Shown: positions 5,752 to 25,813, numbered from the stretch's first letter. The stretch is 64,000 nt of DNA from Psammoneis japonica (GCA_008632985.1 QPGO01000001.1:240600-304599); one strand, 5' to 3'. The notes: a model not told the origin generated them from the sequence alone. Made by a program: numbers and translations.

Positions 5752-6252
5752 ATGCAGCTACCAAAGCTTGTCAAGGTGGAGGTCCTCTTGAGACGGCTGC
5801 CGCACGATAATCCCCTGGAATCTTTCTTTGGTTTTCTTGATTTGGCTGGAGAGGCGTTGAATCCCCGCAATCACCGCAAAGGAAGGTTTCGGAGCTGGTT
5901 GACTCACTTCTTACTTGTCTTAACCGATTCAGAAGGAAGTCTATACGTGCTCGAACGTACGGATACGAATGAGCAAAACGGTGGAGTAGTCTATCGCAAA
6001 TTGTCAAGCGCTGAAGAGATTGAACAAGAAGGAGCAATCGCAACGATGGAGTGGAGCGGCGAAAAGGACATGAGCAAGGTCGAGGCGTTTGCCAATGAGC
6101 AAAGGTCTTTTTCGTATAGTCTTGTCGACAAGAATTGTCAGCACTTTGCATACGACTTTTTCAGGAATGTTCTATCGGATCCCCGCGCGTTTGGTCCGTT
6201 TGAGAGGTTCACGGAAGAATGTCAATGGATTTTCGTGGACAAAGAATCCTAA
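5752..6252 (+). CDS. Permuted papain-like (PPPDE/LRAT-like, NlpC/P60 superfamily) protein
   Basis: Intact 166 aa ORF. His (LTHFLLVL) precedes the Cys motif YSLVDKNCQHFA, the Y.L...NC.HF signature. Confidence 0.7.
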   Translation: MQLPKLVKVEVLLRRLPHDNPLESFFGFLDLAGEALNPRNHRKGRFRSWLTHFLLVLTDSEGSLYVLERTDTNEQNGGVVYRKLSSAEEIEQEGAIATMEWSGEKDMSKVEAFANEQRSFSYSLVDKNCQHFAYDFFRNVLSDPRAFGPFERFTEECQWIFVDKES

Positions 6253-6432
6253 AATAGAAAGTATACGTATGTCAATGTTGAGGCGAGATGTTGTGAGTAA
6301 CAGTAATGTTTTTCTGCTCCTAGGGTTATACTGTACCTCTAGGAATGGTCAGCTCTAGCTAGCTTTCGAACCTTTCTCTCCTTTGGAGCCGGGGTCATTT
6401 GAAGAAAATAACAGTACCATATATTTATCATT

Positions 6433-7406: not shown

Positions 7407-8869
7407 TGTGTTGCCAGAACTTAGAGACGTCCTATCTGCTGGTCTGCGGCTATGATCTAATGCACAGAATGTGACCGTGTTCCATCTCTACTCTCGGTCA
7501 CTTCAGGTTTTGCGGTTACCGTGTTTTACACTGACGTCAGGTGTCGTGATTGCAAAGCGAACATGCGGACGCCAGCCAACATCTTGATGGACCAAAAGCT
7601 CGTAAAAACCAGCAACACTTCCGGATCGCCGCTACATTGATGGTATTATTCACAACTAGTCCTATTCAAACAACGCAAACACTGTCAGTACGACCATATA
7701 TCATCAACACTATGCTAAAAAAGTACTGCTTACCATCAATGTGTTACTAAAAAGACCGTGAAAGGAGTTTGCATGTGCACCAATAGCGCAAGAGCCAACA
7801 CCGTGCGAATCCTTGTTGAATTGTTGTGGCTTGCTATTTATTCTCTGACGCCTTGAAGCTTCATTCACTACATTCACATTCTATTCGATCCATGCTTCTC
7901 ATTTTTGACGCAGGCTCTTTGTTGAAGTCGAAATACGGACTATCGCTTCCAAAATGAGTGGATAATCCGGCATGACTTTTTCTTGTGCCTGACGATGAAG
8001 CTCTCCTGAAAGCATAAGGAAAACGTCGACCAAGCCAAATAATATAACACTCACGCTTATTTTGAATGAAATGGTGATTATCAAATATATACTGTACACA
8101 TTTGTCGTCGATCGATTCATCTCGCCTTCTTTAAACCTGCTACTGATGTCAAGGCATGCATCCATTACGATAGCAACTTTCAACACGTTTTGAAACGATT
8201 TTTTTGCTGTTTTTAAACTCACTCTTCGTGATTTAAGCCATCACTTCATAATACCTCGTAAGGCCATTGTCTATTTCAACATAACGAAAGAATACAACGA
8301 GAAAAAACTGTCGTGTCGTCATGTTGGGTTGGGAGCCAACGAAACGTTCTACTGGTATCATACCGTACACTGTACGTATTATCATAGCACAAAACGCGGT
8401 GTGTTTAGTCATCGTATGATATGATGGAGTCTGTACCGGTACGCAACGGACAATCATGTCGGCACGCGTTTTACTATCATCTTTTAGGTTAAAAAAGAAT
8501 ATAAGCAATTTAATGATGTATTTTGGATTTTCTTAAAAAAAGTCTCAGTAAATCATACTCAATATATGATATAATATAAACACGTATATAAGACATTATT
8601 TTAAAATATCCGCCGAAAATTTCAAAATAGAGTACAATACTATGAATTACAGTACAGTACCAGGTATGATTGATGAATTTTTCAAAAATGAATTTGCTGG
8701 AGGTTCGGGTTCGTTGCTTCCAAACTCCTGAAACAACGTGTCGTACAGCACCGCGCAGGGATAGATGATGTCAATGTTCATCAATTGAATAGGAAGACTT
8801 CTGAACGATTCGTTGCATCAGACACACAGCACTGACAGGGAGCATCAAAAGTGTTCAGAGCAGTGCGAC

Positions 8870-10672
8870 ATGTCTTCCAGGAAAGCTACCAGCGTTCTGC
8901 CGGATTCTGTGGCTTCAGCTCCGGTTGCAGCTGCTGCAGGCCCGTTATTTGACGAAACAGAGTATGCGGAACTGCGAACACATTACTTGGAAGAGCGCAT
9001 GTGGTCCAAGGAATTGACCGATGGAATCAGTCTTCGTCCACGGCCAAAGGCATCTCGCATGGATTGTGAAAAGGGCCCGGGTTGGAAAGCTCTTCGGCAA
9101 CGTGTTGCAACATTGGAAGCAGAAAATAATCACAATGAGATATTTCGTCTTTTGTCGCAGCTCAAGCAATGGGAGCAGTTACGAGGCGTATTCCCGAGCG
9201 TTCCTGGAGGAGGTGGCACCACGAGCGACGTCCAAGAAGTCATCGATCTCACAAATGCCCCCGACGATGATGAAGTAATTGATGTAGAATCGTACATTGT
9301 CGACGTGCTTCTGGTAAAAATTGTCAAGGCCGATCCAGATTCACTCCCGGACGAGAATGCCAGCGTGCAACCCATGCCTGTAATGTCATCAACCCTTCCG
9401 GACATGGGAAACTGCGGTCCCAATCCAGAGAGTTCCACATTGCTTCCCACTCAATCTCCAACCACTGCTCAAAAGAAATTAGTTCATGCCGATTGGCAAC
9501 CCGTCGGGCAAATGCTGCATGGCAAAGCATCGGATTATTATTTTGGTGATTCTGTCGCCTTGTCTCGTGATGGTAGTGCCATGGCTGTCGGAGCGGATAA
9601 AATTTCCAATCCCGGCTATGTTGTTGTCCATCGACACAATCCAAGCAACCAACAATGGATACAAATTGGCCAAGAATTGGTTGGACAACGTCATATTGGC
9701 TATTATGGCTATTCTGTTTCATTAAATGGCGACGGCACCATTCTTGCGGTTGGAGCGCCGTCTGTCGGTCACGTTCGCGTTTTTGAATACTACTCTGCAT
9801 TGGATCGTTGGGTCCAACTCGGCAGTGACATTCTTGGACATGACGCTCGTGACCAATTTGGTGTTTCCGTGTCGCTCTCGGACGCTGGAGACATTCTTGC
9901 CGTGGGAGCTGATTTGGATGACACAGAAAATGGCTATGGTTCCGGTTCGGTTCGATTGTTTCAATACGACCGTGGCTCCTCATCCTGGAACCAACTCGGT
10001 CAAACACTCATTGGCCAAGCTCGTGATGATTCGTTTGGCAGCTCTGTTTCTTTGAATGCGCAGGGAACCATTGTTGGCGTTGGAGCGCATTGGAATGATT
10101 CGGGCGGAAACAATGCTGGTCAAGTGTCGGTGTATGAATACAATTCTGCCTCGTCAAAATGGGATCCATTGGGTGACTCAATCAATGGACAAATCGTTTA
10201 TGGTTATTTTGGATATTCTGTTTCACTTGACGACAGTGGTTTGATTGCGGCCGTGGGTGCATGTGGAAGGAAAAACGAAAGGGTTTTGGTTTATTCGTAC
10301 GACCGCTCAACTTTGACATGGAATCAACGCGGCCAAACTCTCTTGACACAACAGCCTGGTAATTATTTTGGATGGTCTGTTTCGTTGAGTGGCAATGGAA
10401 ACGTCTTGGTGGTCGGAAGTGAAGATCATGACGTCAATGGAATGGATCGAGTGGTTCAAGTTCGAAACTTTCAGCACGACAGCAATGCAGATGAATGGAA
10501 GCAAGTTGGAGATCCTTTAAATGGCGAGGCTGAGTATGATGATTTCGGAAATTCCGTGTCCTTGTCGGCCGACGGAAGCGTCGTTGGTGTTGGTGCTCCT
10601 CTACCACTAACAAACAATGCCAATTGCAGACGTTCCGGATCCGCGTATGCATTCACGGTAAACAACAATTAG
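8870..10672 (+). CDS. FG-GAP repeat (integrin-alpha-like beta-propeller) protein with unrelated N-terminal region
   Basis: Seven repeats of (Y/F)G.SVSLS.DG..LAVGA ... W.Q.G..L.G from about 9490 to the end. ATG at 8870; no signal peptide is apparent. Confidence 0.85.
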   Translation: MSSRKATSVLPDSVASAPVAAAAGPLFDETEYAELRTHYLEERMWSKELTDGISLRPRPKASRMDCEKGPGWKALRQRVATLEAENNHNEIFRLLSQLKQWEQLRGVFPSVPGGGGTTSDVQEVIDLTNAPDDDEVIDVESYIVDVLLVKIVKADPDSLPDENASVQPMPVMSSTLPDMGNCGPNPESSTLLPTQSPTTAQKKLVHADWQPVGQMLHGKASDYYFGDSVALSRDGSAMAVGADKISNPGYVVVHRHNPSNQQWIQIGQELVGQRHIGYYGYSVSLNGDGTILAVGAPSVGHVRVFEYYSALDRWVQLGSDILGHDARDQFGVSVSLSDAGDILAVGADLDDTENGYGSGSVRLFQYDRGSSSWNQLGQTLIGQARDDSFGSSVSLNAQGTIVGVGAHWNDSGGNNAGQVSVYEYNSASSKWDPLGDSINGQIVYGYFGYSVSLDDSGLIAAVGACGRKNERVLVYSYDRSTLTWNQRGQTLLTQQPGNYFGWSVSLSGNGNVLVVGSEDHDVNGMDRVVQVRNFQHDSNADEWKQVGDPLNGEAEYDDFGNSVSLSADGSVVGVGAPLPLTNNANCRRSGSAYAFTVNNN

Positions 10673-11328
10673 AAATTTATTTTTTTTTATTTCATCCTCT
10701 TGTATCAACCATGATGTAAATAGTTCATTCTTCATTGTAAGACAAATTAGTGTTGCAGCAGCACCAACGTGGGACGATTGGAGTTACGTTGTTGTTGACG
10801 AATGTCCCGTCGTGTTTGGAGGGATCTGCCCATATGTTTTATTTCTATCCTATCTCTATCACGTTCTTTGTGGTCCAGTTTTCGATCGAATCTTTTATGT
10901 TTTTCTTTCAGCGCACCGAACCTCATGTGACAAACATGAATGAAAGGTCTTTGAGTGCTAAGAAACACCATGATACAGCCGTTGTTCGGGCACATATAGG
11001 CGTTTCTTCTTCAGGTCGTCCCCAGTTTGTTTAATTTTGAGCTTCAGGTTGTATGGTACTCCCTCTTCGTTGTAGAAACTTAGTGAAATACCCAGCAAGT
11101 CTGATGAACGCGACAATCCTTGCCTATAGACACGCAATCACGCAGAAACGTTCTACAGTACTGTTGAATAGTTGATCGCGGTGTGCTTGATGCAGCATCT
11201 AGATCCCTTTGTGTCATGTGCTAATTGCTACTGTACTTACGTCACGTTGACCACGCATTGGCGGTCTCCACAAAGAAAAGGACGCATGCTATTCGACTCA
11301 GCAAGAAGCTTCCCCCGTCTCGATCAAA

Positions 11329-13663
11329 TCAGGCATACTCGTCATCCATCCAAGAAATGAGATCCTCAAAAGGGTCTTTCTGGCCGTTGCTGCAGCTGTC
11401 TTGACGCATAATCAATTTCGTGTCCTCGTTTGGCGACTCGATACTATGTTGCTCCTGGTCTTCTACTCCCGTTTCAGAAACCTCGGATCGAACCGAGCTT
11501 TCCGTCAATTCCGTTTCGATTACAGAAACCGAAAAGTCCAACTTGTCTTGTTTTGTATAGGTCATGTCTGGGTTTGTATTGTTGACCTGGTCGGGTGTGC
11601 CACGATCCACCATGCAGTACAGGCTCCGACCACAATATACGAGTCCACCTTGTGATTTGCATTTGCAAAGAATACCATCCGCATCCTCTGCAGTGAGAAA
11701 TTGGACGTGCGCGCCATACGCAAGCGACCCTTTGAACCACGTTTCCTTGAACTCAATATGTTGCGCATGGTAATCGAGAGTCTCGAGGAAATGAGCCAAT
11801 TGTGTTGCCGTGGCGGATCGGGGGACATTGTTCATGTAAACGCACTTGCTTGTCGTCGGGCTCTTGGCAGTAGGTGATCCTGATGGAGACTGTACTTCTG
11901 ATTCCATCTCGAGTGCACACGTCTCTCCTTGGGGAAGCAGCCGAAAGTAATATTCGGGCGAAATTCTACCGCCCATGGTGCCTGGTTGGTCTAGAGCCAC
12001 CGCCACATACACAGTATCACTGCTGTCGAGCTTGCGTCTGCCCATTTCTACAAATCCAGCTTGGATCGAAGCTCGGCGTGCCTCTTTGTATCGGATATTG
12101 ATATCTTCCTTTGTGGTGGCTTGCAAATACAATGACGATAGTTGTCGTCGAAAATGATCTCCAACCGATCCAGCCGCCACCCATCTACTGTGATTCGAGC
12201 CTGCTTGGCCGGCAGTAGCCCGAGTTCCAGCCAAGTATGCAGCATAGCAAAACTTTTGTGCATCACCCGAACTATCATCGTTCAGAGCATTCTTGTCGTT
12301 CTCCTTTGACATGGGCGACGACGACAATACGCCAACCTTGTTGTTTTCGTAACAATTCCTCTCGTTATTGCCTCTGTAGTGCGCAAACGGATTTGGTTTG
12401 GTATTGACCATGGCTCCAATATACTTTCCCCGGTAACAAATTCCACCACCACCCGCACCCCTATTGGCGGCAAACAGCACCTTGTTGGCATGCATTTCAT
12501 CCACAAATTCCACGTGTGCATTGCAGGCATAGCTACTGCACGTGTCCATTCGTGCACGACGCACCGTCACGTGCAAGGTTGTTTCGAGCGTTTCCACAAA
12601 GTCTCGAACATTTGAGTTGCCGGGTATACGAGGCAAAAAGAGTGTTGTTCGACTTTTTGTTGGAGAAGAGTACGTCTTGGTGCTGTTGGGTGAGGAGGTG
12701 TGTTATCGGAACGTTGCGGGCTTGTGTTGTTCAACAGTTGTTGACCCTTGGGGAGCATCGTATATAGACTTCATTGGACAAGCGAAGGCTTGGATTGTTG
12801 GTGGCGGATGTAATTTCCCGTTTCCCACTATTGTTCAGTATACGGCGTCCAGTTTCAATAAAGCCACTAGATTCGGCCTCTTGTCGAACTTTGCGTGCCT
12901 CCTCCTTGATGACGGCTGGAGAAACACCCGACCTTCTCAATTCTTGTTGAATGAATAGTGCGATTCCTCCCAAATCAGCCCAATCATCATTGGAGGATTC
13001 CGCGGCAGCGCGTTCGACGGACCTGCAAATAAACAACACGATTGCATCGTTGCCGCTTGTAGGACTAGTGCGTATGGACGGTGATCCCAATGCTGCTGCT
13101 GCTGTTCATGGTCTTGATCTTGGAGAGGGGCGACGCATGGGTGCCATTGGTACTTGCAGTCTTGTTGGCATTCGTCAACACGTCATCTTCAAGAGACATG
13201 GCAATATCCGCCGTATCCACCAATACTGATGCCACGGTACAGTCTCGTCCCACCATGACAATCGTCATGATGCCTCGATCCCGCAGTTTACTGAGCGTAT
13301 ACGCATAATCCCCATCCCCCGTCAAGAGCACAACACAGGGCTTTTTATTGTCATTGCGTACCGCCGAATCCCACGCAAAGGTCAAGACATCGGCAATCAT
13401 CTTTTTATCCAGCGTTTCCTTGTTGTTACGGGTCGGTGTGTTGACCAAATCAAAGCCACTGGAATCTAAAAAACTGCTACGGGTAGGCGGTATTGCTTTT
13501 TCAAATCATAATACAAGCGCCGATCGACAATACGACCATAATGAACGACGGCATCGACAATGGCCTTGGCAGCTTGTGTAGCATTGCACCAGTCGGGGAG
13601 GGGTACGTTTTCGTAATCCCAAAAAATGGCAATTTCGCGTTGTTGTTGTTGTTGTTCTGACAT
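11329..13663 (-). CDS. NYN-domain (limkain-b1/MARF1-like) ribonuclease with two RRM-like domains; frame-broken (assembly indels or young pseudogene)
   Basis: IAIFWDYENVPLP, KETLDKKMIAD and VVLLTGDGDYAYTLSKLRDRG are NYN catalytic motifs. LFLPRIP..AHVEFVD and VYMNNVP..AHVQFLT are RRM-like. The frame shifts near 13485, 13100, 12760 and 12700 without intron-sized gaps. Confidence 0.8.
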
Positions 13664-14299
13664 TGTATTGGTATGCTTGTTTCGTATGGATAGCAATTAT
13701 TGAATAAGAATAAGTAGCTCTAGCAGTCTGGTGATCTTGATTACAGCTCTTCAGACCAACTTATGGTGCAATCAAGAGAGCAACGTACAGAGTTTTTCGC
13801 AGTAAAGTTCAGAAATATAGAACAAGCTCTTGGTGTGAACTCGTGTCTCTGTCTACTGCTGTTCTTGCTGTCGATATGCTCAATGTTTGGTTCACTGGGT
13901 CTCTTGAATTACATTAGAGAGTTTACACGAGGACAAACGTAACGTGAGATACGCGTATTTCGGAAGGTATGATGCTCCTCGCCACGATTCTTCTTGCAGA
14001 GAGAGTTGCTCCGCACACGCTGAAACAACAAGTCTTCCCCTACATGCGCTCTCTCCAGATGCTTTCTTTGCTCACACACGTACCTGATAAGGTGTTACCC
14101 GTCTTTTAGCGTTGCTGATGGTTCAAGCCACCACAATGCAAATAGCAACCTGAAGAGTGTGAACAACGGAGGATCAGCCCACCGCCATTTTTGTGATCTC
14201 TCTCGAAGCGCGCGCTTTGTGGTGTTACGTAGAAATCGGTATTGATTCTACACAAGTAAAAAGCTACGTCATTGCTTAGTAGTAGATCGATCTTTTTCG

Positions 14300-16590
14300 C
14301 GAAAAGGGCATTGTGCTTTTCAATCTTAATTTTATCTCGGCAAATAGGGCATTGTGCTTTCCAATGACCCAGCACATGCATAAAAATGGCTGGGTTGCAG
14401 CCTGTGGCGTTCTTCAAACAATGATGATGGAGGCCATCGGCATGGATCCATTGGAGATTGTGCATTTTCATCTTCCATTCCAGTGGCCTTGATCTCCACA
14501 AACAATGATCTCTTGTGAGCAAAACAGCCGCCAGGGGATCTCTCCCCCCCCAAATGAGAGGCGCTTCTGCTGACCTGCTGACACGCTGCTGGCTGGAGTG
14601 TGCAAAGGCCAAAGTTCCACATGATGGCTCTGCACATGTGTTGCCACCTTGTTCTCTCCCCACAGCTCTCAAGCAAGTTTCTGAGTGTGTTTGGCACTGT
14701 TGTGACAGAGACCACAAAAGGTGTGTGTCAGATGTGGCAGAGGTGGAGGAAGGCAGGCATGTTGCAGCAAAGCTTGTTCCTGCCAGTGAGTTTTTGCTCT
14801 CCTTTCCACCCCAAAAGAAAAAAATGGCACATTGGGGCAGCTGCTCCTTTTTTCCATCATGTGGCTGATTTTTTCCCATTTGAAGATTCCCCAAAACAAA
14901 ACCAGAGCAACAACAAGGAGGGGGGAAATTGCCTTGTGTGTGACAATTTGAGGAAATCAGACAAATGATGCACCAAGGTTGCATGCAGAAGGTGTGGTCC
15001 AGTGTGGCTGGCGTGCCCTCTGCTGTGTTTCATCTGCAATCTGCACAGAAAAGTTTGTGCACACACACGGATTTGATGTGGAGAGTTGTGACCCCTGGAG
15101 CACCACACTGTCTCTCTGAATGCCTTGAGAGTCTCCACACACATGGCAACCCGGGTGTGCAAAGTGGGGTGTGTGTGGTTGGTGCATGCTGGACTCACAG
15201 TGGAGAGTGGTTCTTCTTCAGGGGAGAGGAACAAAAAAGAGTGGAGGATTGCAGCAATTGCAAAGTGACTCAGCTCAGGCAGATGTGCTTTCATCCCCAT
15301 GAGCAATCCAGCCATTCCATTCCACCAACTGCTGCCAGCCAGGCTGCAGCACTTGTGGCAAAAAGATGTGTGCGGTTTCTTTGATGATGCAGAATGGACA
15401 CTTTGCAATGGACCAGGAAGGCAAGCATGCCATGTGCACGAGGGTGTTTAGTGTGAACAACAGCACAGCAGGTCAACAAGCACAGTCAGCTGCAGCACAA
15501 AAGAGCCTGAAAGCAGCAGCAGAACAGACACGTGCCAACATTTTGTGAGTGTGATGCACCTCTTGCTTGGCAATCCAAGCACTTGAAATTGTTCTGCAAA
15601 TGACAAGACCAGCTTTCTCATTGATGAACAATGTGACAACTCTGTTTGGATTGGTGGTTCAACTGGGCAAAATTTGGGCCAGCAGCCATGCTGCATCATC
15701 TCTCCAGGAGCTGTGTTTCCTGGCGGCCTGCAAAAAGTGCAAGCCCCACTGAGTGAGTTTGCAAACCAACAGCTGGCAATTTTCTCACCTGAGCTTGCCT
15801 CCTTGACTTGGCATCACTGGCAAAGCACCTCAGATGCACTCAAATCTGCCCAAGTGGCAAGAAACAGAGGGGTGCAACCATGTGGGCATCTCAGTGACAA
15901 CACTCAGAGCTGCAGTTCCTTGCCAAAAATGAGACCCCAGATGGCACTCACCTTGAATCTCAAAGCTTTGGCCCAATCACAAATTGAAGATGCCAACAAA
16001 CAACACCAAGGTGTCACATGGGCTGACAACCTGTGCTGTGACCAGAGACAGCACACAGTCTGTGTGAGTGACGAGCACGCTTCTTGCAAAAAATGCGAAC
16101 AACATTCACCAGCTTCGGCTGATGAAAGATCAATTGAGCCTCAATGCCACTGAACAAAGACAAACACCACGCGACATGCCAGCTGGGACATCAAAACAGA
16201 GCAGACAGAGAACAAATGTGAGTGAAAGCACCAACGGAAACAATGCAAGCAACAAAGCTCTCTTTCATTGCCATTGAGAGCATGCTGAAACACGGGAGAG
16301 TTGTGAAAATTGGCAGAATCGATGACAATGGGCACCGCCATTGTCGGGTGCATCCTCGTGCTTCACCACGTGTTGTTGGTGGTGGTCGGAGGGAGGAGTC
16401 GGAAAGCAGCAAGACTTTGTGCTGTAATTTTCTATGTGGCCTGGCACAAGCGAGCCAACGAAAGGAAATTTTCCTCTTCAGGGCGATCGAAGGTGCTTTG
16501 TGCGCGAAAAGTGACAAGTGTTCAGCAATTTGCAGTGTTCGCAGAAATTGAACATCACAATTCTGGCATGATGCCATGCAGTGTGACACC
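14300..16590. repeat. Hypermutated repeat/TE remnant with possible RING-finger fragments on the minus strand
   Basis: TA-depleted sequence with fragments such as CIICL and HHHCL...CPICRDKI. No intact ORF. Confidence 0.3.
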
Positions 16591-16805
16591 TTAAGTCCAT
16601 GCAGACATCAACTTCCCACAACGTAGAATCGCACAGACATGTTGGTGGGGTGCAAATGAAAAGTAGAGTTCTTCTCTTCTCGTTCTGAGCAGTTTGTGAA
16701 AAAGAGTTCTTCTTTTACGGGGGGCTTGCTTCGGTGCCCACCGTCACACTCAACAAAACAGGTGTCATAAAACGATTGGTCAGTTGGGAAAAACAGCTCG
16801 TCACG

Positions 16806-19067
16806 ATGAAGTTCTCCAGTGAAGGAGTTTTTTGCCTTCTTGCAGTTGCTTTTAGCCAAGCGGCAGGCAAGCAGAGCTTGGTGCCTCTCATTGTGGATGT
16901 TGTGTAACAAGGACAACTTTTGCTCACTTCTTTTGTGTGTTCCATGCTTTTCTCGCAAGCGTTTGACATCAAAACTAAAAAAAGAGCAAAGGGCACTCTA
17001 CAATTTTGATGCAAGCAACAGGAGAGCAATTGAAGTTTTGTCTGAACAATTCCTTTGCTTGGACTAATCAACATGATTCGTCACCCATTTTGCTGCATGA
17101 CAGAAATGTGAGAATGCAAGTGGTCAACTCAAATCGGCAGGGGATTGCGCAGTTCTGATTCTTTCAACAAAAAACAAGAAGAAAGTGCTCCTGTCTGCCA
17201 CCAGCCCGCAGGATGGCATCTATGGTGATGTGTGCATGGCTGCGGGTGGATCTCTTGAGAGGTCCGGAAAAGCTGTTGTCTTTGGCGGTGCTCTCTTTGA
17301 ACCCGGCGCAACTGCTCCAAACGACATTGCAGACTTCAAAACAGGTGCAGTTGACCAAACTGTTGATCTGTCAGACAAGGCCAATGATGCGATGGAGGCT
17401 TCAACATTCTTTGAAGATCAGAACTGCGACTTGACTGTTGCTTCCCTTGACTCAGAGATCAATCTTTCAATTTGCGGCGAAAGAGACGTTTGTGTCTGCA
17501 TCAATGGCGCACTTCAAATCACTTCGGACGTTGCCATTGTCGGTGGGGACAAGACCAGGGCGGTTTTCAACATTGAAGATGGTCCAGTCACCAACAGTGC
17601 AAAAGTCTTGGGCAAAGGTTTCATTGTGCCAAAAAACATCATCTGGAATGTCCTGGGTGGGCCAGTGAGCTTGACAAGCAGTGTCCTCGATGGATCAATC
17701 CCAGCCATTGAGAGCAAGGTGGACATGGTGAAATCCGAGGTTGACGGTCAAGTTGTCTCTGGCTTGTCAATCCGCATCTTCAACGGATCTGCCGTGAACT
17801 GCAATGAGAGGCCAGAGTCACCCCCGACTCCAGCTCCTGCCAAACCCCCGACAAAGTTTGGCGCGTGCTGCCTTTCGGGCAAAAGATGTGCAAAAATCCA
17901 AGAAGGACGTTGCATCAGGAAGAAGGGCAAGCACCAAGGAGACGACACCAGCTGTGACATGCAGGACATTGAATGCCCACGCGTTGGAGCCTGTTGCTTG
18001 CCAAGTGCCAGAGAGTGCATCCTTGCAAAAAAGAGCAAATGTAGGATGCAGGGAGGAGGCAAGATCCGCCTTGGAAAGAAGTGCAAGGACGTGACTTGCC
18101 CTGAAGCACTGACTCTGTCGCCAACTCAAACGCAAAAACACTGCCTCCAAAGGAGACTCCACCACCGATGGAGACTCCGTCACCTGCTTCAAAGCAGGCG
18201 CCAACCCCGGATGAAAGTCCGTCGCCGACTTCAAAGCCAACACAACCCCCGACTTCAACACCGACACTGTTCCCGACTTCAAAGCCAACACTGCCTTCGA
18301 CTTCAAAGCAGACACAACCCCCGACTTCAAAGCCGACACTGTTCCCGACTTCAAAACCAACACTGTTCCCAGCTTCAAAACCAACACTTTTCCTGACTTC
18401 CAAGCCGACACTGTTCCCGACTTCAAAACCGACACTGTCCCCGACTTCAGAGCCGACAACCCCCCCCGAAGAAGACTCCGGAGCCGAATCCAAAGAAAAC
18501 AAGGCCCCCGATTCCAAATCCGATGCTGCCCTTTAAGAAGACTCCCAAGCCTGCTCTCCCTGCAAAGAAGACTCTGGCGCGACTCCAAAGAAAACAAGGC
18601 CCCCGACTGCAAATCCAACGCTGCCCCCCAAGAAGACTCCTGAGACTCTGGTGCCAACTCCAAAGAAAACAACGCCACAGACTAAAAAGCCGACGTCACC
18701 CCCTGAGAAGACGCCTGCTTCACCCCCCAAGAAAACTTCGAAGCCGAAGCCAGCTGCTGGTGCTTGCTGCATCTTGAGGCATGGAAGGTGCCGCGATCGC
18801 ATTGCCAGTTCAAGGTGCCAAGGTGGCGGTCACAAATGGGGTGGTGCAGGAAGCTCATGTGGCGACAATGGATTCTGTCCCAAACCGACTCTTGAACCAC
18901 GAACTCCACGCAAGAGCAATGGTGGCAATGAAAGCAGGAGTTCGGGATCTAACTCTGGGTCAGGCAGCAAGAGCAAGGAAAAGAGCAAGGAAAAGAGCAA
19001 GGAAAAAAGCAAGACTTCTGGGTCGGTTTCAGGTTCGGCTTCTTGTCAAGAGAAAATCAACAAGTGA
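16806..19067 (+). pseudogene. Hypermutated pseudogene of the secreted adhesin-like family (closest to 48516-50459)
   Basis: Colinear with 48516-50459 including upstream sequence and introns. It shows Y->C/H substitutions, both donors read GCAAG (16867, 17011), and there are frameshifts from about 18130 onward. Confidence 0.9.
18220..18465 (+). repeat. 24-bp coding tandem repeat (PTSKPTLF units)
   Basis: Repeated CCGACTTCAAA(A/G)CC(A/G)ACACTGTTC. The homologous shorter array is at about 50040-50140. Confidence 0.85.
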
Positions 19068-19192
19068 GAACCCCAGTCAGAGACGAATCACGCGGATTTA
19101 ATGCTGCAGCCTGACCATTCACTCCAAAATGGATGTGATGAAATGAGCATCAAAGGGAGGCCTGCCAAACTGTTGTGCGGCAATTTGCACAC

Positions 19193-19650
19193 TCAATCAT
19201 GCCAAACTGCGACAAATGCTTGTTCCCATGCTGTTGTTGAATGGAAGTAAAACTCATGACACAGGCGACCCTTTGAACAAAGCATCCTTGAACTCAAGGC
19301 TTGCGCTTGGTTGTCGAGAAATTTGAGGAAACGGGCCAATTGTGTTCCATCTCGTGGCGGATCGGGGGGAAGCGATTGTTCATGAAGAAGCAGAACTTGC
19401 TTGTTGAAGTCATCAGTCCCGCCTGCGTCAAGCACTCGGCACTCACCGAGGTTGCGTCTTGCTTCACCGCAGCAAAAATGCCTGCCAATGAGACGATTGT
19501 GCACCGACGCCAACAACTTTTGCCAGAAGCCACATCCGCTGCATGCAATGGGCATTTGGTCTTTGTCTGCATGCAAAAAGTCTACATTGTGCAATGCATG
19601 AAACCAATTCGATGAAATGGCATCAAAAAATGACTCACGACACACAAAAA
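19193..19650 (-). pseudogene. Decayed ORF of unknown function convergent with the family gene
   Basis: Its C-terminus FYFHSTTAWEQAFVAVWHD* matches the relic FCFHSRTSWEQAFVRAMKEGYD* at about 50623-50700. Confidence 0.4.
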
Positions 19651-22509
19651 ACACTCGATGGTGACACGACGAAGCAGCAGAGCACGGTCTCTTGTGTTGG
19701 GCATTGTGCCAGTGCTTCTGATTGGAACATTCAAAATGGCTCTGGGGTGTTTGCAAAGATGTCATGACACACAAGTGAACAGCAAATTGAAAAAAGCATC
19801 CCCCCAATTTGGAAATCGCACCACCTGAGGCAGACAAATGGCACACTTCTAAAATCCTTGCATGCTTCTCTCCAGAGCATCAAACGGCATTTTCTCAAGT
19901 CCAGCTGCCAGAGTTGCCAGCTGTGCACTGCACTGCTGCTCTTGCAACTTGTTGCCACACTCCCACTTGAACAACACCTTCTTGCTCCACATCTTCTCAA
20001 GCAATGAAACTCTTCTTGTTGTTCATTGTTTGTTTGTTGTTTTGGTTTTTGAGGAGTTGAGCAACTGCTTGCTTGTTCGTCCATGTTGTCTCTCTGCCAC
20101 AAGGCTGAATTGCCAACAGTTTGAAAATTTCTTTTGCCAAAATGTGGGTTGCTGGCTGTTTCACAAAAGAGCTGCTTTCCATCAAGAGACAGCACAGATG
20201 CACAATTTTTCCCATCAATGCTGTTTTGATTTAAACAGAAGCAAGTGTGGGGCATGTTGCAGTGCCATTGTCATTGTTTGTCCTTTGGGGTGTCACCTGG
20301 CTCAAAATCCTCTGTGTGAGTGACAAAGATGAGTGTGACAAAGAAAATGAGTGGGTGACAATGAAAGACAAGCAAAGCACAATTCAGATGCAATGGGAAG
20401 CAAAGGTTGGTGTCAAATTGTGGAGCCAGCATTGCAGCATCTGTTTTTTCATCTTGCAAGTGGACGATTGCTTTCAAACAAGCAACACACCTTGAAGCCA
20501 GCATGCAATGGCAATGAAGACTGGGGTGGTGTGTGGCATTGTTGTGGTTGAAACGACTGGAGACACTCTAAAAAGCTGCTTTGATTCTCATGATGGGTGG
20601 TGTTTTGAGGGATTGCACACACACACACATGACTGACTGAGTTCTCAATTTCATGCAGCTGCATGCTTGCCTCAGCCATCAACCCTGCTCATTTTTTACA
20701 AACTTGAATTTGTGCAGAGTTTGTTCCAGGTGATGACCTTGTAGTGTGATGCTGTTTGCCAGCCCCAATGAAATCTTTCTTAGATGCAAAACATTGTCAT
20801 GCCTGCTGGTTGGGGTGGACAAGGTTGGGTTTGTGCATTTTGTGCAAAACATGCATGTTTCTGTGAGAGTGCACAGAACTCCGTGGGAGGACCACACAAA
20901 CTGCATCATTGCAATTGAGCTTCTGCCCATTTCTGTCGTGATGCTCAGCTTGGGTGGAATTTCCATGTGCCTCTTTGTGCCAAGCATTGATGTTGTCCTT
21001 TGCAGTGGCTTGCAAACATGATGAAAATTGGTGGCTTCCAAAATGCTCTCCAGCCCATCCAGCCAGCAACACCCACCTGTCATTCAAGAATGCTTTGGCA
21101 GCAGCTGCCCAAGTGCCAGCCAATCATGCAGCACAACAAAATTGTTGTGCATCAGCCAAACCATTGTTGTTTAGACAAGCACTCTTGTCTTGGCTCTTCT
21201 TTGACACAGATGACTGTTGACATTCTCATCAGCCAAACTGCCATTGTTTGGACAAAAAGCACTCTTCTTGCCCCAGTTTTCCTTTGACATGGACGACTGC
21301 AAACATTCTCAGTGCATTTGCAATGAGTTTTCTGAGTTGCATCTGAGGAACCTGCATGAGACAAATGCAAGATGTGCTTCAAACTGCCATGGGCCACTGA
21401 AGTCTGGAACAAGTCACACTGCGCAAGGCAATGTGAGATGCACATTTCAACAGGTGCGCTCCTCACCTTGCAGAAAAAGTTTTCCAACACATTGAAACAA
21501 CAAGGTGTTCCCCTCTGTGTGGCATGCTCACACTGAGTGCTTCACCTGGTCAAAGTTCTCTCTCTTCTCTGGCATCATTGATGGTGGACAAAAAGAGGAT
21601 TGCTGGCACAGAGCCCGCCACACTGCAACTTGGCTCCCGCGGCATTTTTGTGACGTCACCGCTTGTGCCATCCAAGATCATGAAAAGAAGCAGAAAGCCA
21701 AGATGCTGTGCATCTGTTGCATTTGCTCAACCCCCACCTCCAGCAACAGGGCCAAGACTGCAAAAAGTGGCAGCTTTTGCACCAGGCTTGTGAAACTCCC
21801 ACCCTTGCGCCACGCGCTTTCTCCAATGGCTGGGTGCTTCAGTGCTGCTGCGCGCCACCAGCCGGCCAGCAGGAGTGGAGTGAGTTGAGAGCAGCTGTGT
21901 GGAGGCCCAGAGAGCAGCTCTTGTCAGCAGCAGTGGTGGCACTGCACTGTAGACAGAGCGAAAGAGCTGCTCTGCTGGCATCATCTGTCAATCGTGAGTT
22001 TCTGTTCTTCGCACGTCAACTGCGGCAGCACTTGCTTTTCCGCTTCCCTCTTGGATTCGCGAACAGGGCATTGTGCTTTCTACAATTGCATTTTGCGAAT
22101 AGGGCATTGTGCTTCACACTCACAAGAATCATCATACATATCAATCTCTACAATAGCTGTCTATCATGATGTTTCGTTCATTGTTTTCGCTGTTTCCGTT
22201 TGAGACCGTGTCGGCGGCACAATGGTGCCAGGTCGGACAAAAATGTAATAATGGTAAAACTGCATTAATCTAGAAATGCTGATTACCACACTGGTGTCAT
22301 ATTTTTGTGGAGCTTGACCAAATGCATCCGAAGAGGGGAAAAAAGTGCAAAAAGGTGTGCCTTTAAACAAGCGCAACGCTGTGTTTTCTTTTTCTCTCGG
22401 GCCTGCGCCATTGTGTAAGTGCCACTTGTTTGGTTAATGTCATTCCAATAATCTCGACTATTATTGGTTGAATCGAAAGCGACTTTGCAAGAAAAAAAAC
22501 GACTGAGGC

Positions 22510-22980
22510 GACCTGATTGGAGTGAATGTTTTGCTCATGACGATTCTCACACTTTTTCTTTCTTTGTTTGAATCGAAAAATGAAGTCAACTGTCACCTTG
22601 TTGACTATTGTTCCAATCTTGATAAGGCTTGGTTGAGTCGTCGAGTTATGCAAGCCAAAAATAATGCTTGCGCGTCCTGCTTGGATTGACTTTTTTGCTC
22701 GTGACGACTCTCAAACTTTTCTTTCTTTCTTTGAATCGATTTGAAGATGTGCTGTTTCCTCGCTGACTATCGTTCCAATCTCAATCAGGTTTGGTTGAAT
22801 TGAAATCGAGTTAATCAAGAAAAAATAGACTTGTGCATCCTGCTTGGAGTGGTTCTTTTGCTCATGACGACTCCCCCGCTCTTCTTTCTTTGAATCGAAA
22901 AATGGAGCTGTGCTGTCGCCTCGCCGATTTTCGTTCCAATTTCGAACAGGCTTGGTTGAATCGAAATAGAGTTGTGCAGG
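22510..22980. repeat. Three imperfect tandem copies of a ~163-bp unit
   Basis: Units start near 22513, 22677 and 22840, each CTG.TTGGA.TG...TTTGCTC(A/G)TGACGA...TTTGAATCGA...GTTCCAAT...TTGGTTGA. Confidence 0.8.
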
Positions 22981-24704
22981 CCTTGAGAGCGTCTGGAGCT
23001 TGCTGCCTTCCGAATGGAAGATGTGCTGCCTTCCCGGAAGCGCGTTGCGACAAGAAGAAAGGAGAGCACCAGGGTGACGACACCAACTGTGACATGCCAG
23101 ACATTGACTGTCCCACGGTTGGAGCGTGCTGCTTGCCAGGTACCGGAGAATGCATCGTTTCCAAAAAGAGCGAGTGTGGGATGCAAGGAGGCAGATTCAA
23201 GCTGGGCAAGTCGTGCGAAGACGTCTCGTGTCCTAAAGCACCAACTCCGCCACCGACCCCGCCTAAAGGGGCATGTTGCATTGTGAGAAATGGAAGGTGC
23301 CGCGACAATGTGCCTCTTTCAAGGTGTAACAGAAGCGGTCGCGAATGGGGAGGTGAAGGGAGCTCGTGCAGTGACGAAGGCTTCTGTCCCACACCAACCC
23401 CTTCCCCAACTTGCTGCTTCGAGGATGGTGACTGCGACGTCGTGGAGGAGGGCGAATGTACAGGCGAATTCCAGGGTGTCGGTCAAACGTGCGATGACGT
23501 TTCCTGTCCCGTGCCTTGTGAACTTTCGGTTGACAAGTTCTGCTCGGTACCCAGGCCGCCAACGTCAGATTTTGATTGCGACAAGCCTATCGAATCCCTG
23601 AGCATGAGATGGGATGGTGAGGAGGAGCCCATCAGCATCATCGCGTACGCGGGAGATACTGACGAGGATGTTTTGGCCGAGATTGGTGACATCTCTGTTG
23701 GAGACGTGGTGACGGTTACGGGTTACAGCGACGCTCCCAAAGACGTTTTCTGGGAAGTTTTTGATTCGGCAGGAAGCAAGCTTGGTGAATCCATGTTCCA
23801 TTTGTCCTGCTCGGATGACGATATGAATGGCCCCGAAGACTGCTTCAAGAACCAAGGAAACGGCAAAAAGGACGATGATGATTTCATCAATGACTGGCTT
23901 TTGGAAGGCATGCAAGACAGCCAATCCACCTTTTTCTGCACTTCCCAAGACCCTCAAGAAACTAGTGAATGTGAAGCCTTTATCGGCGGTGGTGGGTGCG
24001 AAGGAAAGGTGACTGCTTTGTACTTTAGGTATGAAGGGGGCGGGTGCGATCAAACCACCAACACGCAAGAAGGAAAGGTCGAGTGTGATGATGATGTTGT
24101 ATCGGATGGTGGACCCGTTAGCGTCGAAGCTGTTTCCGACAAAACCGATATCAGCCCAAGTACCGAAACCATCAATATTGGAGACGAGTTTGTCGTTACA
24201 GGCGACGATAAGCTCAAGAGTGATACCGAGTTTGAAATCACTCAGAACGGCAGTCCTCTCCAAGAACTCAATATTCACACTTCATGCTCAAAACCCCTTA
24301 GCGTTGGCGACAGTTTCGGCAGCGTGCTTCTTGTTGGATTGGACCAAGAAAAGGGCCCGGACCTTCGAATCTCGGCTAATGTTGACTATACCTACGTGAT
24401 TCGAAACACAGGCAGCGTTCCGGCCGTGGACATCAGTGTGGTGGATGATCAAGTTGGTGAAATTGATGAGATTGATACTCTGGATGTGGGTGAAGAAGTT
24501 GTTCTGACCGCCACTGACTCTATCGATGTAGACACTGTCAATGTTGTGACGGCGAGCGGTAAGTCACAACGGGGTGGCAAACAATGTCGCGATAGCTCTT
24601 CCGCTGCCGTGAAAGTGACCCCGGCGCCTCCTAGGAGGAGCAAGGGAAAGGGCAAGGGTGGCAGTAAGAGCAAGGACAAGAGCAAGAGCTCTGGCTCCTC
24701 TTAG
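22980..24704 (+). CDS. Extracellular Cys-rich protein: GACC repeats + two acidic H(L/T)SCS domains + Ig-like (DUF11-type) domain + K/S/G tail; true 5' end unresolved
   Basis: The GACC repeats are homologous to the other family copies. Other motifs are FHLSCS / IHTSCSKPLSVGDSFGS, YTYVIRNTGSVPAVDISVVDD, and the tail SKGKGKGGSKSKDKSKSSGSS*. The annotated ORF start (22833) lies in the tandem repeat. Confidence 0.75.
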   Translation, partial: ALRASGACCLPNGRCAAFPEARCDKKKGEHQGDDTNCDMPDIDCPTVGACCLPGTGECIVSKKSECGMQGGRFKLGKSCEDVSCPKAPTPPPTPPKGACCIVRNGRCRDNVPLSRCNRSGREWGGEGSSCSDEGFCPTPTPSPTCCFEDGDCDVVEEGECTGEFQGVGQTCDDVSCPVPCELSVDKFCSVPRPPTSDFDCDKPIESLSMRWDGEEEPISIIAYAGDTDEDVLAEIGDISVGDVVTVTGYSDAPKDVFWEVFDSAGSKLGESMFHLSCSDDDMNGPEDCFKNQGNGKKDDDDFINDWLLEGMQDSQSTFFCTSQDPQETSECEAFIGGGGCEGKVTALYFRYEGGGCDQTTNTQEGKVECDDDVVSDGGPVSVEAVSDKTDISPSTETINIGDEFVVTGDDKLKSDTEFEITQNGSPLQELNIHTSCSKPLSVGDSFGSVLLVGLDQEKGPDLRISANVDYTYVIRNTGSVPAVDISVVDDQVGEIDEIDTLDVGEEVVLTATDSIDVDTVNVVTASGKSQRGGKQCRDSSSAAVKVTPAPPRRSKGKGKGGSKSKDKSKSSGSS

Positions 24705-25813
24705 AGAAACAAGAAGAAGTACAAGAGCGACTGTAAGAAGACCAACCAACCATATTGAGTGGCCAGGAAATTTTGTATGTGACAAAAATAGCATCAAAGC
24801 CTACCCAAATCATTGTCGTAATGTGTACTATAAGTAATAGTGTCAACCTCAAGAAGGAACGATTGCCACAAAACTACAAGACGTTTCATCATCAACAAGC
24901 CTTCTCTTTCAATCCTGTGAAAAGGTTGTTGACAAAAACAATACGGTACGCATCACAGTACACGTACCTGGTCTTAGATATCACAACACGGTGGAGGATA
25001 TGTCATCCACCATGTTCAATTTCCAATCAGGGTTGGTGTTAGCCATCGCTCTACCTCCGTGTCTCACAAACTCCAGGCAAGGACAGGGTGGTTCGGGTTC
25101 CTGCTGAAGAAACATTAGCAGTAGCAACGATGTCACGAAGAGCCCAGCTGACTGGATAGCCGGTCAAAAGTCTGTGGCCTACCGAATCGATTGCAACAAG
25201 GAAACCGACCGTAACTTGCAATTGAAGAAGATAATTCTATCAAAGCCTTAGCCCCCATGATAGACATCGTAGAAGGCTTTCCCGTCCCGTGTCTCCTTGA
25301 CGGCTGGATCAAAGGTAGGTCGAATTCACTGTTGGAACCCACACAGCATACTGTACACACAATGCACCTCTTGTTGCCGTGCTTCTTTCCAACTCCAAAA
25401 ACAATCTCGCTGTCTTGGGCCGCTCGTTGCTTGTGGACTTTGCCAAGGCCACGTCATATTTTCTACTTGCCTCCATCGTGTCGACTGACTCAAGACGGAT
25501 CCTTTTCATAATCTCAAAAGCAAGGAAGGACGCGCAGAAACATGCACCCAACGGCTTATTTATTCTGCAAGACTCCGAACTGTTGGCCTTCGCCGTGTCC
25601 GTGTCCGACGACCATGGCCCGACGCTCCGCAATCTTCAATCTTTCTGCTATTTGTGTAGGCATTATCTCCATACACATGAGCAATCCACGCAGCGTTATA
25701 AGTATCGCTACTACTAGCCTACTATTTGGCTACCGTCACTTGTGTTATGCGTGGTTTGTACATGAAAAACAAGCAAACACTACTACTATCTCTGCCCAAA
25801 AGGTCCCTACACT

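Follow-up and report, generated by a model that had tools for sequence, protein, structure and literature searches.

TpA to TpG or CpA hypermutation confined to sharply bounded domains of a 64-kb genomic window

Results

Gene copies at the locus

The window analyzed here, a single stretch of 64,000 bases, carries several copies of an Ice-binding-like/Cys-repeat/Pro-rich gene family. Copies B (31212-33638, plus strand, ATG at 31383), C (48260-50700, plus strand, ORF 48870-50459), and D (51650-54038, plus strand, ORF 52192-53628) are intact and of normal composition. Copy A (16539-19260, plus strand), to which C is the intact sister, is a hypermutated and frameshifted pseudogene: its frame changes between 18132 and 18138, an in-frame stop lies near 18535, and the intron-1 donor has gone from GTAAG to GCAAG. 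Both introns and the upstream flank are still present. As the first-pass annotation of this DNA had proposed, 16590-19260 can be aligned with 48320-50700; blastn matches 16539-18574 to 48260-50244 at 80.3% over 2065 columns, with more pieces out to 19259/50698. The tyrosine changes given there as examples also hold, since copy A reads ICGERDVCVCIN and KHQGD where copy C reads IYGERDVYICIN and KYQGD. The AAATAAG/AAACAAG example, however, was polarized wrongly because B and D read CA there, like A, which places the change on branch C.

TpA-specific change on the branch leading to copy A

A MAFFT alignment of A, B, C, and D gave 1291 ungapped columns (A 16800-18135) and an unrooted tree, which does not by itself polarize branch A. 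Branch A carries 80 changes (60 of them transitions), compared with 40 on C, 54 on B, and 47 on D. When the changes were tabulated by context, A>G or T>C was found at 22 of the 53 A/T bases in ancestral TpA but at only 12 of the 562 other A/T bases (odds ratio 32.5, p = 9.9e-18), in line with the enrichment originally suspected. These 22 changes represent about 22 of 26-27 ancestral dinucleotides. The effect is absent from branches C, B, and D (2/53, 1/81, and 1/81 at TpA), and A/T sites outside TpA are not raised on branch A relative to branch C (12/562 versus 14/562). The change is therefore specific to TpA. Conversion of CpG to TpG or CpA, also reported at first pass, occurs on branch A at 13 of 102 CpG bases versus 11 of 465 G/C bases outside CpG.

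Over the whole alignable part, the 65 TpA of copy C are read in A as 26 TG, 21 CA, 6 TA, and 12 other dinucleotides, so that A retains 6/65 TpA compared with 44/93 CpG. In the control pair D and B, both of normal composition, 73 of 85 TpA are kept. The TpA observed/expected ratio is 0.52 in copy C and 0.49-0.56 across C, B, and D, the same as in other gene-bearing DNA; since these copies are repeated, intact, and unmutated, repetition as such is not the trigger. Copy E (22815-24704) is an intact gene yet TpA-poor, with 1 TpA where C has 7, and it agrees with A at three of four TpA sites, so a rule that only silent DNA is affected may be too simple. Polarity had initially been drawn from Tyr kept in two further paralogues. 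The Tyr is indeed retained in D, but this evidence does not suffice alone because of the state of E, and outside outgroups are needed.

Depleted domains across the window

The affected unit is not the paralogue pair, as first thought, but domains of 2.7-13.4 kb. Observed/expected ratios for TA and CG, computed within the 64-kb window, delimit four sharply bounded TpA-depleted domains that together make up 28,063 of the 64,000 bases (44%). TpA stands at 0.01-0.24 of expectation inside them versus 0.48-0.64 elsewhere in the window, and the G+C content of the depleted blocks is 0.47-0.52. The original observation is thus confirmed, at a much larger scale than was seen at first.

The first domain (1-4400) lies at the left end of the window; TpA and CpG are both gone from 1-1500, and depletion is partial at 1501-4400 (TpA 0.24, CpG 0.73). 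The second (14382-21950) surrounds copy A. Its outer parts, 14382-16000 and 19501-21950, have lost both dinucleotides (TpA 0.01 and 0.05, CpG 0.12 and 0.22), and 16001-19500 has lost TpA alone (TpA 0.09, CpG 0.63). The third (28336-31043; TpA 0.04, CpG 0.18) has its right edge zone at about 31040-31120, within the segment duplicated between B and D and roughly 270 bases upstream of the B ATG. Because this edge falls inside a duplicated segment, position decides and not sequence origin. The largest (34601-47986) has lost both dinucleotides at 34601-42000 (0.04 and 0.20) and TpA, with CpG partly kept, at 42001-47986 (0.10 and 0.54). It includes a stretch free of TpA (38316-41829), with 3515 bases between successive TpA; normal DNA has about 40 TpA per kb. 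Blocks 14382-16000, 19501-21950, 28336-31043, 34601-42000, and 42001-47986, with TpA at 0.01-0.10, have TG+CA ratios of 1.62-1.88; block 16001-19500, with TpA at 0.09, has a TG+CA ratio of 1.44, under the second cut-off given in the Bigelowiella natans preprint discussed below.

Around copy A, flanking DNA without a paralogue is just as free of TpA. A hypermutated relic (19259-21214) is related to normal DNA at 11718-12319, inside a minus-strand ORF (11329-12702); the 13 TpA of the normal copy at 12.0 kb appear in the relic at 20.9 kb as 7 CA and 4 TG, with none kept. Similarly, the upstream part of the B block that lies in a depleted domain (30525-30868) can be paired with normal DNA at 51092-51424, where 11 TpA became 7 TG and 3 CA with none kept, and where 16 of 22 CpG read TG or CA and 3 were kept. 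A multi-copy repeat adjoining copy A (16001-16668; word depth up to 761 versus about 58) varies between its copies mostly by swaps of TA or CG with CA or TG.

Of 85 ORFs scanned, 83 had no Pfam match; of the other two, one matched Aminotran_3 weakly and one gave a Tt1219-like match below threshold. No viral genes were found in the window. The affected DNA comprises one Ty1/copia element, host-gene copies (A and the relic at 19259-21214), and DNA without a Pfam match. Long "ghost" ORFs of 522 and 381 residues, above each of 200 shuffles, persist in depleted DNA because the process makes no new TAA or TAG stops.

Strand, context, and CpG

Both strands are affected. Among 84 polarized TpA sites, 40 became TG and 38 CA, and TG and CA counts per kb are balanced, which bears out the proposal of a strand-symmetric, TpA-directed process acting on DNA. 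Clustering of the two outcomes along copy A is weak and not significant (runs test z = -1.75), so there is no sign of long strand-coordinated tracts, which processive single-strand deaminases leave. The TpA that survive differ in their flanks from those of normal DNA: RTAY accounts for 7/150 versus 438/1444 and YTAR for 62/150 versus 231/1444 (chi-square p = 5e-18). CpG decay is co-located with TpA loss but is separable from it and slower. At 16001-19500 and 42001-47986, TpA is nearly gone where most CpG survive, so TpA loss does not follow CpG decay.

A Ty1/copia element gives direction and timing

The largest domain contains a hypermutated Ty1/copia-type LTR retrotransposon (36271-47490, minus strand). 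Its 5' LTR (47263-47490) and 3' LTR (36271-36516), both on the minus strand, have TG...CA ends and are bordered by a 5-base target-site duplication, GGCAG, at 47491-47495 and 36266-36270; a younger nested insertion probably occupies about 42.0-47.26 kb. The polyprotein relic (36579-41785, minus strand; integrase, then RVT_2-type reverse transcriptase) contains several frame changes. It has 1076 homologues at E <= 0.001, of which P0055 is colinear over residues 1-1871 with 41785-36591 on the minus strand (tblastn). RVT_2 lies downstream of the matched part in 3 of the 10 long copia homologues scanned, and no Pfam model matched the relic's own ORFs in the window.

Compared with three copia homologues from other genomes, the relic reads Cys or His at 32 of 54 (P0055), 25 of 44 (P0025), and 16 of 21 (P0053) Tyr positions, and at 27 of 76 Arg positions of P0055. 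At insertion, the two LTRs of this element were identical. Today, 45 of 225 aligned bases differ (40 transitions and 5 transversions), and the differences include 10 CA/TG dinucleotide swaps and 7 exchanges of CG with CA or TG. Because the Tyr of outside homologues has become Cys or His and the LTRs differ by CA/TG swaps, the change ran from TA to TG or CA and took place after insertion; in copy A it followed duplication.

Support from reads

Contigs from public run X1 (depth about 58-68) show 0 other letters against copy A at 16508-17131, 17112-17266, 17248-17657, and 17645-17802; over 17775-20500 they show 1 other letter (position 18010, CA versus CG) and 1 insertion. C-like variants lie on contigs separate from those of copy A, and the depth of the copy A k-mer contigs is the same as that of the flanks. 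Since X1 is possibly the assembly's own data, a consensus or polishing artefact is excluded but a platform-wide one is not.

A deaminase gene in the window

An AID/APOBEC-like deaminase gene (6433-7395, minus strand) lies in DNA of normal composition, and the nearest depleted domain is 7 kb away. The ORF contains HAEIEM ... APCKNC, with the zinc-deaminase pattern H[AV]E ... PCxxC (here HAE...PCKNC), and matches the Pfam families SNAD4 (48.2 bits, cut-off 27), NAD1 (46.0, cut-off 27), and APOBEC_N (44.0, cut-off 25); its predicted model is poor, with a pLDDT of 52. This gene could be a candidate effector. No ADAT2/TadA-type gene was found within the window, where the sole deaminase belongs to a cytosine-deaminase family.

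Discussion

The whole is probably best explained by a domain-confined mutator of TpA to TpG or CpA, with deaminase chemistry, recruitment through silent chromatin, and a role in defence, of the kind described in B. natans. Such a mutator, confined to chromatin domains, would act on DNA and convert TpA on either strand almost to completion. Its targets would be transcriptionally dead DNA, namely the old Ty1/copia element, its nested insert, other repeats, and landed gene copies such as A, while adjacent active genes would be spared, the domain edges close to their promoters being tens of bases wide. CpG would decay to TpG or CpA in the same domains more slowly, as expected if 5-methylcytosine is present there. 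Targeted deamination of adenine is our leading guess at the chemistry: adenine would be turned enzymatically into hypoxanthine in a T-A context, perhaps by a deaminase of the TadA/ADAT2 or AID/APOBEC superfamily. Silent-chromatin marks may recruit the enzyme, and its role may be genome defence, analogous to fungal RIP. The weak strand clustering in copy A, the window's lack of an ADAT2/TadA-type gene, and the intact but TpA-poor gene E speak against parts of this reading.

A thymine-centred process is unlikely but is the strongest of the alternatives. The thymine of TpA would be modified by a TET/JBP-type dioxygenase to 5-hydroxymethyluracil or a J-like base, which would mispair with G or be misrepaired to give T>C, and A>G on one strand is not separable from T>C on the other. 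Some protists are known to favour TpA as a context for hydroxylating thymine, and the CpG decay in these domains points to 5-methylpyrimidine biology there, but 5-hydroxymethyluracil is only weakly mutagenic. As far as its main text goes, the sole experimental paper on the signature prefers adenine deamination, without proof (bioRxiv 10.64898/2026.01.13.699255). The window ORFs scanned also included no TET/JBP gene, although they cover only 64 kb.

Rather less likely still is biased repair or gene conversion, also listed at first pass, in which a mismatch glycosylase or endonuclease guarding methyl-CpG over-corrects T:A to C:G at TpA in silent domains. Very-short-patch repair, which depletes CTAG in E. 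coli, offers an analogy, and TpA and CpG do both end as TG or CA in shared domains. TpA is, however, nearly gone where most CpG remain (0.09 versus 0.63 and 0.10 versus 0.54). This route also requires a pre-existing mismatch, yet A/T sites outside TpA are flat between A and C, and known T:G glycosylases prefer T before G, not T before A.

ADAR- or ADAT-type A-to-I editing at UA, with the edited transcripts reverse-transcribed back into the genome, is very improbable. It shares with the changes seen here A>G with T or U immediately 5' of the target, a context that the B. natans preprint describes as favoured by such enzymes (bioRxiv 10.64898/2026.01.13.699255), and one target is a retrotransposon. 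Nevertheless, these are RNA enzymes, whereas the changes here lie in genomic DNA, including introns and intergenic DNA. A retrocopy of edited RNA is contradicted by the introns and upstream flank kept in copy A, by single loci converted on both strands, and by LTRs that diverged after integration; a domain edge also crosses a duplicated genomic segment, and CpG decay occupies the same blocks.

No more probable is an artefact of sequencing, basecalling, or assembly at modified bases, which some platforms can miscall systematically. X1 and the assembly may share their data, but X1 contigs at the depth of the flanks match copy A with C-type contigs separate, and real decay lies alongside (frameshifts in A, frame changes in the copia relic, and 5 LTR transversions). 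The least credible reading, that A is ancestral and TpA arose in C, B, and D through RIP-like CpA>TpA change, draws on the unrooted tree and the A-like state of E but is refuted by outside copia homologues with Tyr or Arg where the relic has Cys or His, and is further opposed by the ordinary TpA ratios of C, B, and D, the TpA-free DNA around A that has no paralogue, and the scarcity of TpA in E.

Targeted adenine deamination can also be set beside known systems. A literature check for prior reports found the same signature in B. natans, where Mettrop et al. (2026) describe TpA>TpG/CpA hypermutation in integrated viral regions, a de novo rate of about 6e-7 per site per generation in mutation-accumulation lines, enrichment of reverse-transcriptase and DDE domains among depleted genes, and ADAT2 as a candidate (bioRxiv 10.64898/2026.01.13.699255). 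As presented in that preprint's main text, the two cases share TpA-only changes, giving TpG or CpA by strand, in discrete regions, and a long-term footprint of window clusters with TpA down and CpA+TpG up. We infer that the process is of the same kind; its effect is far more pervasive here. By the figures given there, TpA erasure is near-saturated here, at 0.01-0.10 of expectation versus 0.45 in the B. natans NCLDV region, and 44% of a 64-kb window is affected versus 124 clusters in 95 Mb of genome. The targets seen in this window are an LTR retrotransposon and copies of host genes, with no viral gene found, and CpG decay co-occurs, the word CpG being absent from the preprint's main text. The DNA is probably that of a different organism, intron-poor and perhaps diatom-like: exons here reach 2.2 kb, compared with an intron count of 8 per gene for B. 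natans (PMC13746701, Table 1), and TpA in normal DNA is about 0.6 of expectation, compared with about 0.8 for B. natans as computed from its 6.0% TpA assuming about 55% A+T. The B. natans evidence includes de novo events, whereas the process here is known from its sequence footprint.

Like fungal RIP, the process leaves dense transitions at one dinucleotide in silenced or repeated DNA, inactivates transposons and duplicates, and drives the LTRs of one element apart. RIP nevertheless makes C>T/G>A changes, mostly CpA to TpA, raising A+T, and mutates all copies of a duplicate; here the direction is opposite, TpA is destroyed while G+C stays near 47-52%, and duplicated copies C, B, and D are unmutated with normal TpA, so RIP was rejected. 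Deamination of 5-methylcytosine would give the CpG>TpG/CpA change of the same domains (CpG 0.12-0.22), but it cannot remove TpA, whose loss is faster and in places leaves most CpG in place. That neither process explains the TA loss was argued in the first-pass annotation, and its interpretation, a possible little-described genome-defence mutator, is supported: whole domains are filled, the Ty1/copia element was affected after insertion, and the B. natans signature is reported to arise de novo.

More tentatively, a RIP-like defence of opposite polarity may operate in a second lineage of eukaryotes, probably diatoms or their relatives. In this reading a natural deaminase of DNA adenine, from the TadA/ADAT-AID/APOBEC superfamily, is drawn to 5mC-marked silent chromatin, takes RTAY first and YTAR last across whole domains, and stops at promoter-sharp edges. 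If so, transposons and stray gene copies would be killed without the making of stop codons. The window holds the traces of a rare targeted DNA mutator, reported so far in one other alga only.

Hypermutation of one member of a four-copy gene family

The gene family under study encodes a product with an Ice-binding-like/pAdhesive_15 domain, Cys-rich repeats and a Pro/Thr-rich tract, and its copies lie at 16539-19260 (A), about 31212-33638 (B), 48260-50700 (C) and about 51650-54038 (D), with a partial fifth copy, E, of the Cys-repeat part at 22981-23264. The first-pass annotation had aligned copy A with copy C and read many of their differences as TA to CA or TG, and blastn bears this out, with 80.3% identity over 2065 columns. 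Across the whole A/C alignment, the 65 TpA dinucleotides of C read as TG (26), CA (21), TA (6) or something else (12) in A. MAFFT alignment of the four copies (1291 ungapped columns) groups A with C and B with D, and places 80 changes on branch A, 40 on C, 54 on B and 47 on D. When the changes were tabulated by context over the four paralogues, the proposed enrichment at TpA was clear: 22/53 A/T bases of ancestral TpA had undergone A>G or T>C on branch A, equivalent to 22 of about 26 to 27 dinucleotides, but only 12/562 A/T bases outside TpA (odds ratio, 32.5; p = 9.9e-18). The latter bases were unaffected, since branch C showed 14/562, and changes at TpA on the other branches were few (C, 2/53; B, 1/81; D, 1/81). 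The accompanying CG to CA/TG changes were likewise recovered on branch A, at 13/102 for CpG versus 11/465 at the remaining G/C. The Tyr to Cys or His examples that had been listed for copy A are correct; the DNA example AAATAAG is a change that sits on branch C, not on A.

Copy A is a pseudogene: its reading frame shifts between 18132 and 18138, and a stop codon lies in frame near 18535. The donor word of intron 1 (16868-16872) is GCAAG in A, GTGAG in C and GTAAG in both B and D; the step from GTAAG to GCAAG in A is itself a TpA event. GTAAG is a common 5' splice-site word, and because it contains a TpA, the mutator would systematically damage or alter splice donors. The family's Pro/Thr/Lys-rich tract is encoded by 24-base tandem repeats (18176-18720 and 49817-50250), whose copy number is unequal between A and C.

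The sequence of copy A was compared with contigs from a public sequencing run, X1 (word depth about 58-68). Four pieces of A matched with 0 other letters, and 17775-20500 matched with one base difference and one insertion: at 18010 X1 reads CG for the window's CA, with G in place of A, and after 18579 it carries one additional C, either of which is an allele or an assembly error. The C-type letters are found on separate X1 contigs of similar depth. These contigs exclude a consensus artefact in copy A; X1 may, however, be the data from which the assembly was built and hence not an independent platform. A multi-copy repeat (16001-16668), with an X1 word depth of up to 761 versus about 58 in its flanks, adjoins copy A on its 5' side and might have brought the duplication along or drawn it in. 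Of 15 listed places at which other copies of this repeat depart from the one in the window, 12 are TA/CG<->CA/TG swaps.

TpA depletion is confined to domains with sharp edges

Sliding dinucleotide ratios across the window are bimodal. Normal blocks (4401-14381, 21951-28335, 31044-34600 and 47987-64000) hold 33-44 TpA per kb, with observed/expected ratios of 0.48-0.64 for TpA and 0.90-1.06 for CpG. Depleted blocks (1-4400, 14382-21950, 28336-31043 and 34601-47986; 28,063 of 64,000 bases) hold 0.6-16 TpA per kb, with ratios of 0.01-0.24 for TpA and 1.44-1.88 for TG+CA, and include a TpA-free run of 3515 bases from 38315 to 41830. One edge falls inside the duplicated segment that contains B and D (30525-34549 versus 51092-54898): the B side is converted up to about 31040-31120, about 270 bases upstream of B's ATG, and is normal thereafter, which indicates that position decides and not sequence origin.

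Some depleted sub-blocks have lost TpA and CpG alike (CpG ratio, 0.12-0.22). In 16001-19500, which includes copy A, and in 42001-47986, TpA is gone (0.09 and 0.10) while CpG is about half kept (0.63 and 0.54), and CpG loss is therefore separable from TpA loss. Retention in copy A is 6/65 for TpA versus 44/93 for CpG (-ln, 2.4 versus 0.75), and TpA loss outpaces CpG decay roughly 3 times.

Searches for identifiable genes in the depleted domains returned little. Among 85 ORFs there, Pfam gave just a sub-threshold Aminotran_3 match and a pilin match (0.0099); Rfam yielded no family at its gathering threshold, and the search for tRNA genes was negative. Metagenome scans for related loci, with the PhyH protein and its alignment as queries, found none.

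Direction and timing from a copia retrotransposon

The first-pass annotation had polarised the changes through the paralogues alone. This argument is not sufficient by itself, because branch A stays unpolarised in an unrooted tree of four copies and E has the same state as A, and external outgroups were therefore sought; these homologues support the proposed direction, TA>TG/CA. Copy E was rejected as an outgroup because it is itself TpA-poor, matching A's converted state (CA/TG) at 3/4 TpA sites. It lies within an intact 629-residue ORF with a DUF7467 domain (22815-24704, forward strand), and the surrounding 22501-24000 has a normal CpG content but just 22 TpA over its 1.5 kb; genes that are active close to a domain edge may be affected in part, or this may reflect composition alone. 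The gene family itself supplied no outgroup, its homologue search giving merely 4 weak bacterial matches on the Cys repeats.

Outgroups were available for a hypermutated Ty1/copia relic, whose 381-residue ORF (38467-39609, reverse strand) exceeds in length all ORFs obtained in 200 shuffles. Pfam gave no match for the relic despite the 1076 homologues of this ORF at E <= 0.001, and RVT_2 lies downstream of the matched part in 3/10 long homologues scanned. Organism names among 20 copia relatives covered 3 clusters only, namely the diatoms Cylindrotheca closterium and Phaeodactylum tricornutum and a 'Fusibacter' MAG, which weakly favours a diatom as the host. Residues 1-1871 of one homologue, P0055, are colinear with 41785-36591 by tblastn, with several frame changes. 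Homologue Tyr corresponds to Cys or His in the window at 32/54 positions for P0055, 25/44 for P0025 and 16/21 for P0053, as does P0055 Arg at 27/76, which sets the direction as TA>TG/CA and CG>TG/CA.

The relic's LTRs (36271-36516 and 47263-47490) begin with TG and end with CA, and GGCAG, a 5-base target-site duplication, borders the element on each outer side. The two LTRs of such an element are identical at the time of insertion. Over 225 aligned bases they now share 180 and differ by 40 transitions and 5 transversions, and the differences include 10 CA<->TG dinucleotide swaps, 7 CG<->CA/TG and 1 CA<->TA. A CA<->TG swap is the expected outcome when a single ancestral TpA (or CpG) has been resolved independently in the two LTRs, so that the conversions occurred in place, after integration and on either strand. 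CpG is kept between the polyprotein and the 5' LTR (42.0-47.26 kb), a stretch best read as a younger nested insert. A paper on diatom retrotransposons (PMC2806351) is silent on TpA, RIP, deamination and dinucleotides, as judged from a term search.

The same conversions recur in other duplicated pairs. Between the normal sequence upstream of D and the depleted sequence upstream of B, 11 TpA became 7 TG, 3 CA and 1 AA, while 16/22 CpG became TG/CA and 3/22 were kept. Between 12002-12319 (normal) and 20891-21214 (depleted), 13 TpA include 7 read as CA, 4 as TG and 0 kept. In the control pair, D versus B, both in normal DNA, 73/85 TpA of D are kept in B. A mild asymmetry is seen in that pair, with 19 TpA of B read as TG/CA in D and just 6 of D read as TG/CA in B. 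Finally, an inverted repeat (2996-3372 versus 42914-43289; 94-95% identical) lies in two partly depleted blocks 40 kb apart; its 28 mismatches include 7 TA<->CA/TG, 3 CA<->TG and 6 CG<->TG/CA, TpA is left in both copies, and it looks like a young element caught mid-conversion.

Strand, context and coding consequences

Among 84 polarised TpA, 40 became TG, 38 became CA and 6 were kept. No large TG/CA skew per kb was seen, and strand clustering is weak, a runs test for strand-coordinated tracts falling short of significance (z = -1.75 over all sites and -1.56 over TpA only). Surviving TpA sites are poor in RTAY (7/150 versus 438/1444 in normal DNA) and rich in YTAR (62/150 versus 231/1444), a pattern present in every one of the four domains (p = 5e-18). 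Where the context was mixed, Y-TA-Y stood on the converted strand in 27 cases and R-TA-R in 15 (p = 0.09), which weakly suggests a preference for target A bases followed by a pyrimidine.

The process can create neither TAA nor TAG, so long open frames persist in hypermutated genes, as in the copia relic. A 522-residue frame (330-1895, reverse strand) in DNA depleted of TpA and CpG exceeds every ORF of 200 shuffles and gives the Aminotran_3 match (27.8 bits; cutoff, 30.5); it is probably a hypermutated gene that has stayed open for this reason.

Mechanism and rival explanations

These data show an in-place, TpA-specific, two-strand transition process that is limited to domains and strikes both a retrotransposon and gene copies, and they support the earlier proposal of a strand-symmetric, TpA-targeted A-to-G process acting on DNA (22/53 versus 12/562; 40 TG versus 38 CA). 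Such a process could be explained by adenine deamination by an enzyme of the TadA/ADAT or AID/APOBEC superfamily, which may be guided by silent-chromatin marks. tRNA deaminases act on a U33-A34 geometry, and the 5' T context here matches it. One candidate is an AID/APOBEC-like deaminase gene (6433-7395, reverse strand; SNAD4/NAD1/APOBEC_N, E = 1e-12 to 3e-11) whose HAEIEM...APCKNC motif is intact; it sits in normal DNA, and 7 kb separate it from a hypermutated domain. Its homologue search returned only two proteins, at 47% and 35% identity and each of about 333 residues; the N-terminus apparently starts upstream of the ORF, and the structure model is poor (pLDDT 52, 3 sequences).

Modification of thymine rather than adenine, or biased repair, are rival causes of the same process. 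RNA editing with retrotransposition, a rooting artefact and a sequencing artefact are contradicted by the four-copy alignment, the X1 contigs, the edge within the B/D segment, the LTR pair and the Tyr and Arg residues of the homologues.

Comparison with Bigelowiella natans and significance

In mutation-accumulation lines of B. natans, according to the main text of the preprint, two integrated viral regions accounted for 231/302 new mutations, of which nearly all were A>G or T>C and every one of these on TpA, and the rate was about 6e-7 per site and generation (Mettrop et al., bioRxiv 10.64898/2026.01.13.699255). [quoted passage not shown] The window is probably not from B. natans: the two differ in that the window has uninterrupted ORFs of 1.2-2.2 kb, whereas B. 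natans has 8 introns per gene (PMC13746701, Table 1), and in the TpA ratio of normal DNA, which is about 0.6 in the window and about 0.8 in B. natans, as derived from its 6.0% TpA (bioRxiv 10.64898/2026.01.13.699255). Within the literature surveyed on TpA/CpG hypermutation, RIP-like processes, deaminases and diatom retrotransposons, the signature is reported solely in this preprint. The finding is real, and the window gives a new and far more extreme example of a process with one earlier description, from 2026; it records the footprint at saturation, apparently in an organism other than the chlorarachniophyte B. natans. New here are the CpG co-decay, the sharp edges, the LTR-pair proof of timing and the order of loss, RTAY before YTAR.

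For annotation, the consequence is that hypermutated genes with long open frames and without Tyr are missed by Pfam, as was the copia relic. To our knowledge, no natural enzyme deaminates the adenine of genomic DNA as a defence, and engineered base editors alone do so. The 2026 preprint, on one chlorarachniophyte, was the first sign of a TpA-specific DNA mutator. The sharp edges beside active genes, the LTR pair as an internal clock, the gap between TpA and CpG rates and the RTAY-before-YTAR order make its mechanism testable, and should the host prove to be a transformable diatom, inserting reporters and knocking out deaminases would become feasible.
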